Positions 32,490 to 33,578 of a stretch of DNA of 64,000 nucleotides are shown here, in pieces. The first letter of the stretch is position 1. Each line of letters opens with the position of its first letter. The notes beneath the pieces are model-generated. The model searched no databases, was not told where the DNA came from, and saw only the letters and a program-made list of their open reading frames with translations. The DNA lies in the IMG/VR virus record IMGVR_UViG_3300028832_000102, positions 1 to 64,000 of that record; one strand, written 5' to 3'. A program made the position numbers and the translations under genes. Source of the DNA: a virus (Duplodnaviria > Caudoviricetes).

Positions 32490-33578
32490 TTACTTTCGTG
32501 CCTTAGCACGTGCCCACTCTCGCATCTTCGCCTCAATGTCGATGTGGTTTTCCTCAATCATCTGACGCATCAGACCGAACAGTCGCCAGCCCTCGCCGTC
32601 GGCATAGGTCTTAGCCGCCAACTCCAGCAGGTCGAGACCATCATCGTTGCGGTTATAGAAATCATTGTCCTTGGGGAACTTGCAATCGTGGAACCTCAGC
32701 AGGTTCTGCATCGTGGCGTAGGCACCCATACCCTTGTAGGCGTCCTTCCACTCCTGGCACTGCTTGAAGTAGCCGGCAACGTTCAGGTGGGCGCCACGGA
32801 CAAAGTCTCTCACGGCCTCGTAGAGCTTCTGAGGCGACTTCGTGTGGTTCACGTCCAGTTTCATCTTCAATAAACGCATAGGAGCAATCAACTTCTTGTC
32901 GATGTCCGTCACGAAGTAGTTCTTGCTATCGTACTGCACATAAGGCACACCCTTGCACTTGTGCTGCGGGCGCCCCATAGCATCCTCACGCATCTGCTCG
33001 ATGTGGTTCACCGCCATCTTATAGGCCAACTCCTGATTAAACCAGCGGTTACGGGCACGATAGTTCTCCATGTCGCCATTCTTGAAGAGACGGGCCTGCA
33101 CCCTCAGCTCCTCCAGCAACATCGTCCACTGGTACTTGTAGCCGTGGCGATTCAGCCACTCTGTGAAGCCAATAGGCTTGCGGTGATAGTCCTTGGCGGT
33201 CAGGCCATGGAACACCTGCGACATCACCCACCTGCGGAACAGGTTTCGGTTGGGCACGGTACCGCTGCCGAGAATAGCCTTGATGATAGGGTCATCAGCG
33301 CTCACGGGCACAGCCCCGCCGTCGTCCGTCTTCTTCATCATCTGCTCGCCACCTCCAGGAATCTGGATAGAGAAATACTTCGAGATGTCGATGCCCGCTG
33401 CTTTTAGCGCTTCACCACGCTTCTTCACGGGCAACTCAATGATACCGATACCCGAGTCCACACCCAGCACCGTAGCGTTCTTCACCTTGTGCTCGTGCTT
33501 GTCGAGTACGTCAAACTCACTGCCGCATACGGGGCAGATAACTCTTGTCTCTTGCTTTTCGTTCTTTGTCATAGCCAT
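32490..33578 (-). CDS. RT-associated protein of unknown function (362 aa)
   Basis: Lies inside the RNA array directly downstream of the RT; N-terminal CPVCG Zn-ribbon-like motif. Confidence 0.8.
   Translation of the reverse strand: MAMTKNEKQETRVICPVCGSEFDVLDKHEHKVKNATVLGVDSGIGIIELPVKKRGEALKAAGIDISKYFSIQIPGGGEQMMKKTDDGGAVPVSADDPIIKAILGSGTVPNRNLFRRWVMSQVFHGLTAKDYHRKPIGFTEWLNRHGYKYQWTMLLEELRVQARLFKNGDMENYRARNRWFNQELAYKMAVNHIEQMREDAMGRPQHKCKGVPYVQYDSKNYFVTDIDKKLIAPMRLLKMKLDVNHTKSPQKLYEAVRDFVRGAHLNVAGYFKQCQEWKDAYKGMGAYATMQNLLRFHDCKFPKDNDFYNRNDDGLDLLELAAKTYADGEGWRLFGLMRQMIEENHIDIEAKMREWARAKARK

Follow-up and report, generated by a model that had tools for sequence, protein, structure and literature searches.

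What is the 362-aa protein whose gene lies inside an array of structured RNA units next to a reverse transcriptase (RT), and is it the partner of that RT or an effector? The locus belongs to a 128,014-base (~128-kb) IMG/VR virus genome rated complete by CheckV, and the window, that is the whole 64,000-nt stretch of DNA analysed here, is the first half of this record. The ORF encoding the 362-aa protein (32490-33578, minus strand, ATG start) is preceded on the same strand by a 538-aa RT ORF (33839-35455) across a gap of 260 nt. The ORF list is therefore in agreement with the initial annotation of this DNA, which had described a real gene, co-oriented with the RT and directly downstream of it.

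Family and gene context of the 362-aa protein

The 362-aa protein was matched by the PADLOC model PDLC03807, RTas337, with an E value of 1.1e-109 and a score of 365 bits, residues 12-356 aligning to positions 2-315 of the 316 in the profile. RTas337 and a second PADLOC model, RTas346, evidently correspond to cluster 337 and cluster 346, which were tied, along with a putative ncRNA, to UG27 RTs of gut phages, a group of RTs showing no enrichment in defence islands (Mestre et al. 2022, PMC9226505). The two clusters were renamed bORF and sORF, respectively, in a September 2026 preprint (bioRxiv 10.64898/2026.09.22.753630). On the strength of these profile matches, the 362-aa protein is identified as bORF (cluster 337/RTas337), the large accessory protein of a UG27 RT system (class 2 UG/Abi) carried by a phage. 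With bORF covered by a PADLOC model and by two papers, the earlier view that it belongs to no recognisable family no longer stands. Nothing usable was retrieved for bORF from Pfam, NCBIfam or PHROGs. The family comprised 858 clusters when grouped at 90% identity and 583 when grouped at 50%; five homologs of 399-468 aa had RTas337 as their sole domain, one of them (P0216) showed no similarity to the sORF domain of the window, and no fused forms longer than 635 aa were found, which is weak evidence.

The RT core (approximately residues 1-444, 34124-35455, minus strand), which carries a YSDD active-site motif, was matched by PADLOC RT_UG27 over residues 4-430 (E 2.4e-201) and by Pfam RVT_1 (E 1e-18), and its start is either a TTG at 35455 or an ATG at 35446. 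PADLOC RTas346 matched residues 445-536 of the same ORF (E 7.9e-24), so that the RT C-terminus continues in frame into a sORF-like domain (33839-34123, minus strand). By this match, the true third protein component is sORF/RTas346, present here as the C-terminal domain of the RT. The initial annotation had proposed a 50-aa ORF (35449-35601, minus strand), located between RNA unit G and the RT start, as a possible third component. The ORF exists as an open frame. It stops 2 nt ahead of the ATG of the RT (35446) and runs over the alternative TTG start codon (35455). Its proposed role did not hold up, a relative being present in only 1 of 93 related loci (L003, by tblastn) and only 7 matching clusters being found in 5.8 billion proteins; the corresponding position in other fused-clade loci holds unrelated ORFs or leaves no room. 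The distribution of the 50-aa ORF rules it out as a core component. Comparison with L003 gave differences of 6/13/18 by codon position, that is a third-position excess, and zero indels, and the ORF may be a true small gene confined to a narrow lineage.

Fusion of sORF to the RT was shared by the window and 13 relatives (L001-L011, L082 and L083), whereas in the other loci checked sORF was a separate gene just upstream of bORF. In a quick RT tree the fused loci formed one side of a branch with an SH-aLRT support of 99, which fits a single origin of the fusion. In 12 of the 13 fused-clade relatives, bORF was also located inside the array, preceded by 1-5 and followed by 4-7 motif-bearing units. 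The exception was L009 from IMG/VR, in which the gap between RT-sORF and bORF was only 170 nt and no strict ATCN7TANAG match was found within 15 kb; either a variant motif is in use in this locus or the array is absent. The fused RT-sORF proteins were 532-539 aa long or more, compared with a canonical RT length of 380-450 aa as taken in the preprint, where the fusion is not mentioned (bioRxiv 10.64898/2026.09.22.753630); the fusion architecture has therefore perhaps not been explicitly described.

The association of bORF with the RT was assessed in 80 IMG/VR loci and 13 loci from bacterial genome assemblies. The viral loci were obtained with an alignment query, a single-sequence viral search having given no matches and the diverse alignment A2 being too variable to serve as locus query. 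A UG27 RT was present in 76 of the 80 viral loci and sORF in 77, in each case within 7 kb of the bORF homolog and on the same strand. An RT was also present in 12 of the 13 assembly loci, which came from rumen Bacteroidales, Alistipes, Segatella copri and Bacillota. Whether the homologs mostly occur without the RT had been singled out as the observation that would speak against a partner role, and the opposite was seen: linkage between bORF and the RT is near-obligate. Three of the five RT-less loci (L012, L055 and L094) are cut at a contig end; in L094, a contig of 5.8 kb, the break is immediately upstream of sORF.

The other two RT-less loci, L057 and L080, are on IMG/VR phage records that are 70-74% complete; both carry a bORF homolog and L080 also a sORF, and no UG27 RT was found on either record. 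Either decay of the system or an RT encoded on the missing part of the record may account for this.

Pairwise distances of the RT and bORF across 86 loci and the window were strongly correlated (r 0.976, Mantel p 0.001), with bORF diverging at ~1.6 times the rate of the RT core. As measured by these distances, the co-divergence shows co-inheritance of the two proteins as one module, contact between them not being implied.

The array of structured RNA units

In published UG27 systems, structured units of ~150 nt form an array in the intergenic DNA, and five such systems in E. coli gave 50-100-nt ssDNA copies of the central hairpins of the units, the cDNA starting at the AUC of an AUCN7UANAG motif and ending after UUYA (bioRxiv 10.64898/2026.09.22.753630). 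The window contains seven minus-strand matches to this published unit motif (ATCN7TANAG) between 31445 and 35658, against a chance expectation of ~0.2 matches for one strand of 4.3 kb (Poisson P ~3e-9). A long imperfect hairpin and a UUYA (UUUA or UUCA) were found 5' of the motif in seven of seven units, and the fold z-scores were between -5.6 and -8.5 for six units and -2.6 for the remaining one, unit E. All units are on the minus strand and their bounds are approximate. Specifically, unit G (35614-35770, motif 35644-35658, z -5.6) lies 5' of the RT, and unit F (33632-33801, motif 33662-33676, -76 kcal/mol, z -8.0) lies between RT-sORF and bORF. Unit E (32241-32380, motif 32271-32285) is the first unit past bORF and is followed by units D, C, B and A in tandem over 31415-32205, namely unit D (~32053-32205, motif 32083, z -6.0), unit C (~31801-31950, motif 31831, z -6.1), unit B (~31582-31735, motif 31612, z -8.5) and unit A (~31415-31560, motif 31445, z -6.7). 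The gene had been described as embedded in the array between units F and E. Both units do flank bORF, and with five units past bORF, one between the RT and bORF and one 5' of the RT, this description is correct. A unit 5' of the RT was found in only 2 of the 13 related fused-clade loci.

No consensus structure of the seven units was obtained with MAFFT and RNAalifold because the units are too diverse, and the preprint also finds UG27 units hard to align (bioRxiv 10.64898/2026.09.22.753630). An Rfam search of positions 27000-40000, with E values up to 1, gave no match, the retron RNA families included.

Like the published UG27 systems, the locus has three protein families with strong profile matches, a phage host, a bORF without recognisable domain and an array of units (~150-170 nt here) in which the central hairpin is bracketed by UUYA and AUCN7UANAG. 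It departs from them in the in-frame fusion of sORF to the RT shared with its 13 relatives, in the location of bORF inside the array instead of directly after sORF, and in the one unit upstream of the RT. Amino acid identity between the bORF of the window and those of the separate-sORF loci found here was ~36-46%. Judged from its sequence, the locus has every computable defining feature of a UG27 system.

Several other elements were observed around the array. A 37-nt repeat with a CCTCCCT-GTGT-AGGGAGG hairpin occurs at 32410-32446 and 35794-35830, the two copies being 86% identical; each lies just after the stop of a gene (bORF and the MutS domain I gene described below, respectively) and just 5' of an RNA unit (E and G, respectively). 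Read on the plus strand, the repeat is terminator-like, with the hairpin followed by a T run, and would therefore block transcription antisense to the operon. A promoter and terminator scan of the sigma-70 type gave no informative signal; Bacteroidota promoters differ from this type.

Directly upstream of unit G and the RT, a 375-aa protein (35840-36967, minus strand) contains only the N-terminal MutS domain I (Pfam E 3e-25); by tblastn, 9 of the 11 viral loci and both assembly loci of the fused clade have a relative of this protein upstream of the RT, and the other loci have none. At the other end, a 65-aa ORF (30979-31176, minus strand) just downstream of the last RNA unit matched no Pfam family and has counterparts, 48-54% identical, downstream of the array in six related viral loci. 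The leftward gene block that includes bORF is shared with a gene for a 1813-aa DarB-like antirestriction protein (17446-22887, minus strand; phrog_10089, E 2e-247) that also matched DNA methyltransferase families. A 382-aa transposase (47519-48667, minus strand; phrog_506, E 8e-89) is encoded further away within the phage genome.

Conservation and predicted structure of bORF

The sequence motifs quoted in the initial annotation were all found, with CPVCG at residue 15, FRRWVMSQVF at residue 114 and WKDAYKGMGAY at residue 277, and its description of a basic, aromatic-rich protein agrees with a pI of 9.26 and, in the form of a moderately aromatic composition, with a combined F, W and Y content of 9.9%. 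The claim of a Zn-ribbon-like start was borne out in part: all 77 homologs had C15 and C18, but H28 and H30 were retained in only 38 of 74. Weak matches to Pfam Zn_ribbon_4 occurred in 5 of the 77 aligned members (best E 0.004), and a profile search of PDB sequences returned only snippets of zinc fingers, at E 0.004-0.06. With H28 and H30, which would complete a C2H2-type site, present in only about half of the family, a zinc site at the N-terminus is therefore plausible only.

Four residues (C15, C18, G62 and G285) were invariant in the alignment of 77 diverse homologs. Near-invariant clusters were found at 113-121 (LFRRWxMxQ), 146-176 (including G146, Y149, E157 and D169) and 279-297 (DAYKGxGAYxTMxNLxxFH), and the conserved polar residues concentrate in two helices. 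An AlphaFold2 model of bORF built from the same 77 homologs had a pLDDT of 90.6 and a pTM of 0.77. In this model the beta part (~1-110) consists of a short N-terminal beta region bearing the CxxC knuckle and a small three-stranded beta domain with a helix at residues 54-105, and the body (~113-361) is helical with one beta hairpin at 206-222. Foldseek retrieved no structure from PDB or BFVD for the full model at E <=0.001, and no usable match was obtained from the ESM Atlas. With VIA-align in wide mode, the best match to the full model was a designed helical bundle (Z 7.1, rmsd 4.0, 83 aligned residues); all VIA-align rows were confined to residues 139-272, and these helical-bundle matches were treated as generic helix packing. 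The N-terminal 112 residues, when folded alone (pLDDT 82.9), gave a best VIA Z of 2.4 and only chance chemokine-like rows in Foldseek. The predicted structure of bORF is thus a confident model without a convincing structural relative.

bORF and cDNA production

In the published systems, deletion of bORF or sORF or mutation of the YSDD motif abolished the cDNA, the deletions having been made in the systems of Bacteroides sp. 2-1-16 and Blautia hansenii, and a three-protein complex of RT, sORF and bORF was predicted by AlphaFold3 (bioRxiv 10.64898/2026.09.22.753630). These deletions in homologs, together with the RTas337 membership and the near-constant adjacency of a UG27 RT, support the claim of the initial annotation that the protein is a partner of the RT; the need for bORF at the present locus would follow by analogy with the homologous systems. 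Overall, we consider it likely that bORF is a true partner of the UG27 RT in cDNA production.

The annotation had also offered the role of an effector. This has not been upheld, given that deletion in homologs removes the cDNA itself and that bORF has no effector-type domain; with the cDNA itself lost, bORF would therefore act at or before synthesis. Of the roles considered, that of an effector as in retrons has the least support. Like retrons, UG27 systems have an accessory gene next to an RT for which a structured portion of the neighbouring ncRNA serves as template for short hairpin ssDNA. The locus is unlike retrons in that its RT is a class 2 UG/Abi enzyme (E 9.4e-11 for an RT_Ec107-like model vs 2.4e-201 for RT_UG27), that UG27 has many diverse templates per RT and that UG27 accessory proteins are needed for cDNA production, whereas retron effectors are not known to be required for making cDNA. 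The locus is therefore not a retron, as argued by the different class of RT and the many templates per RT. Assignment of bORF as a retron accessory or effector protein was rejected on the UG27 type of the RT and the lack of any matching retron family in Rfam.

Likeness is also found to DRT2 (UG2) and DRT9 (UG28), in which a class 2 UG/Abi RT copies a nearby ncRNA template. DRT2 and DRT9 are not known to need separate accessory proteins, whereas UG27 makes short hairpins, needs two accessory proteins and is phage-encoded. Long or concatemeric cDNA has been reported for other class 2 RTs (bioRxiv 10.64898/2026.09.22.753630).

In the mechanism that we propose, RT-sORF and bORF would act together on the seven units, using each central hairpin as the template for a short single-stranded hairpin cDNA, with synthesis starting opposite the AUC of AUCN7UANAG and stopping after UUYA. 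bORF would be a basic subunit without catalytic activity that binds nucleic acid, docks on RT-sORF, recognises the conserved internal-loop motifs of each unit and places the template for initiation. Its working surfaces would be the CxxC knuckle and the helices carrying LFRRWxMxQ and DAYKGxGAYxTMxNLxxFH. Neither the sequence nor the model of bORF points to a particular biochemical activity, and loss of the cDNA upon deletion is equally to be expected of a protein primer, a protector of the cDNA or a nuclease acting on the array. A bolder version, which we regard as unlikely, is that bORF, with a fold that has no solved relative, enables initiation at the internal-loop AUC in the absence of any RNA 3' end, acting perhaps as a protein primer or as an initiation factor of a new type. 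If this were true, the RT-sORF fusion clade would offer a simpler, two-protein version of the system for dissecting initiation.

The placement of the cDNA start inside an internal loop, away from the RNA 3' end, also raises the question of whether bORF is itself a terminal-protein-like primer, with a hydroxyl such as that of Y149 starting the cDNA opposite AUC and remaining covalently joined to it. Protein priming is used by other UG/Abi RTs such as AbiK and DRT9, although those UG/Abi enzymes known to be protein-primed carry the priming residue in the RT itself. Candidate residues are available in bORF, Y149 being present in 75 of 77 homologs and Y213, Y281 and Y287 in 65-68, and loss of the cDNA upon bORF deletion in homologs would be expected of a primer. 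No primer was identified in the preprint, from the text of which the word 'priming' is absent, and its denaturing gels show free 50-100-nt ssDNA bands, which argue against a covalent protein-DNA product (bioRxiv 10.64898/2026.09.22.753630). The bORF model also matched no terminal-protein fold, and overall a primer role is judged improbable.

Alternatively, bORF could bind the hairpin ssDNA after synthesis, protecting or delivering it, or could be an effector using the cDNA against a host target. The basic character of bORF is compatible with such a role, and undetectable cDNA upon deletion fits lost synthesis or lost stability alike; the function of the cDNA is stated as unknown in the preprint, leaving room for this reading, but the AlphaFold3 prediction in the same study puts bORF in a complex with the RT and sORF (bioRxiv 10.64898/2026.09.22.753630). 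The tight co-divergence of bORF with the RT and the lack of a toxin, nuclease or other effector domain in bORF also argue against it, and we give this explanation little credence. Least of all do we expect bORF to be an RNA-processing enzyme that cuts the array transcript into units or makes a priming 3' end: its gene is inside the array, so that the bORF mRNA and the units probably share a transcript, and the conserved E157, D169, K282, H297 and D347 could form an active site, but bORF matched no nuclease family or fold and the published cDNA start is an internal-loop motif, not a cleavage product.

That bORF is the RT partner, the preferred reading, has been published and is represented in PADLOC, and so is not new; with the partner question answered in print, the locus adds a confirmed example, not a discovery. 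The one modestly new detail may be the RT-sORF fusion clade with bORF inside the array. In this clade the UG27 system is cut to two proteins plus RNA, a form that could ease reconstitution, structure determination and tool development.
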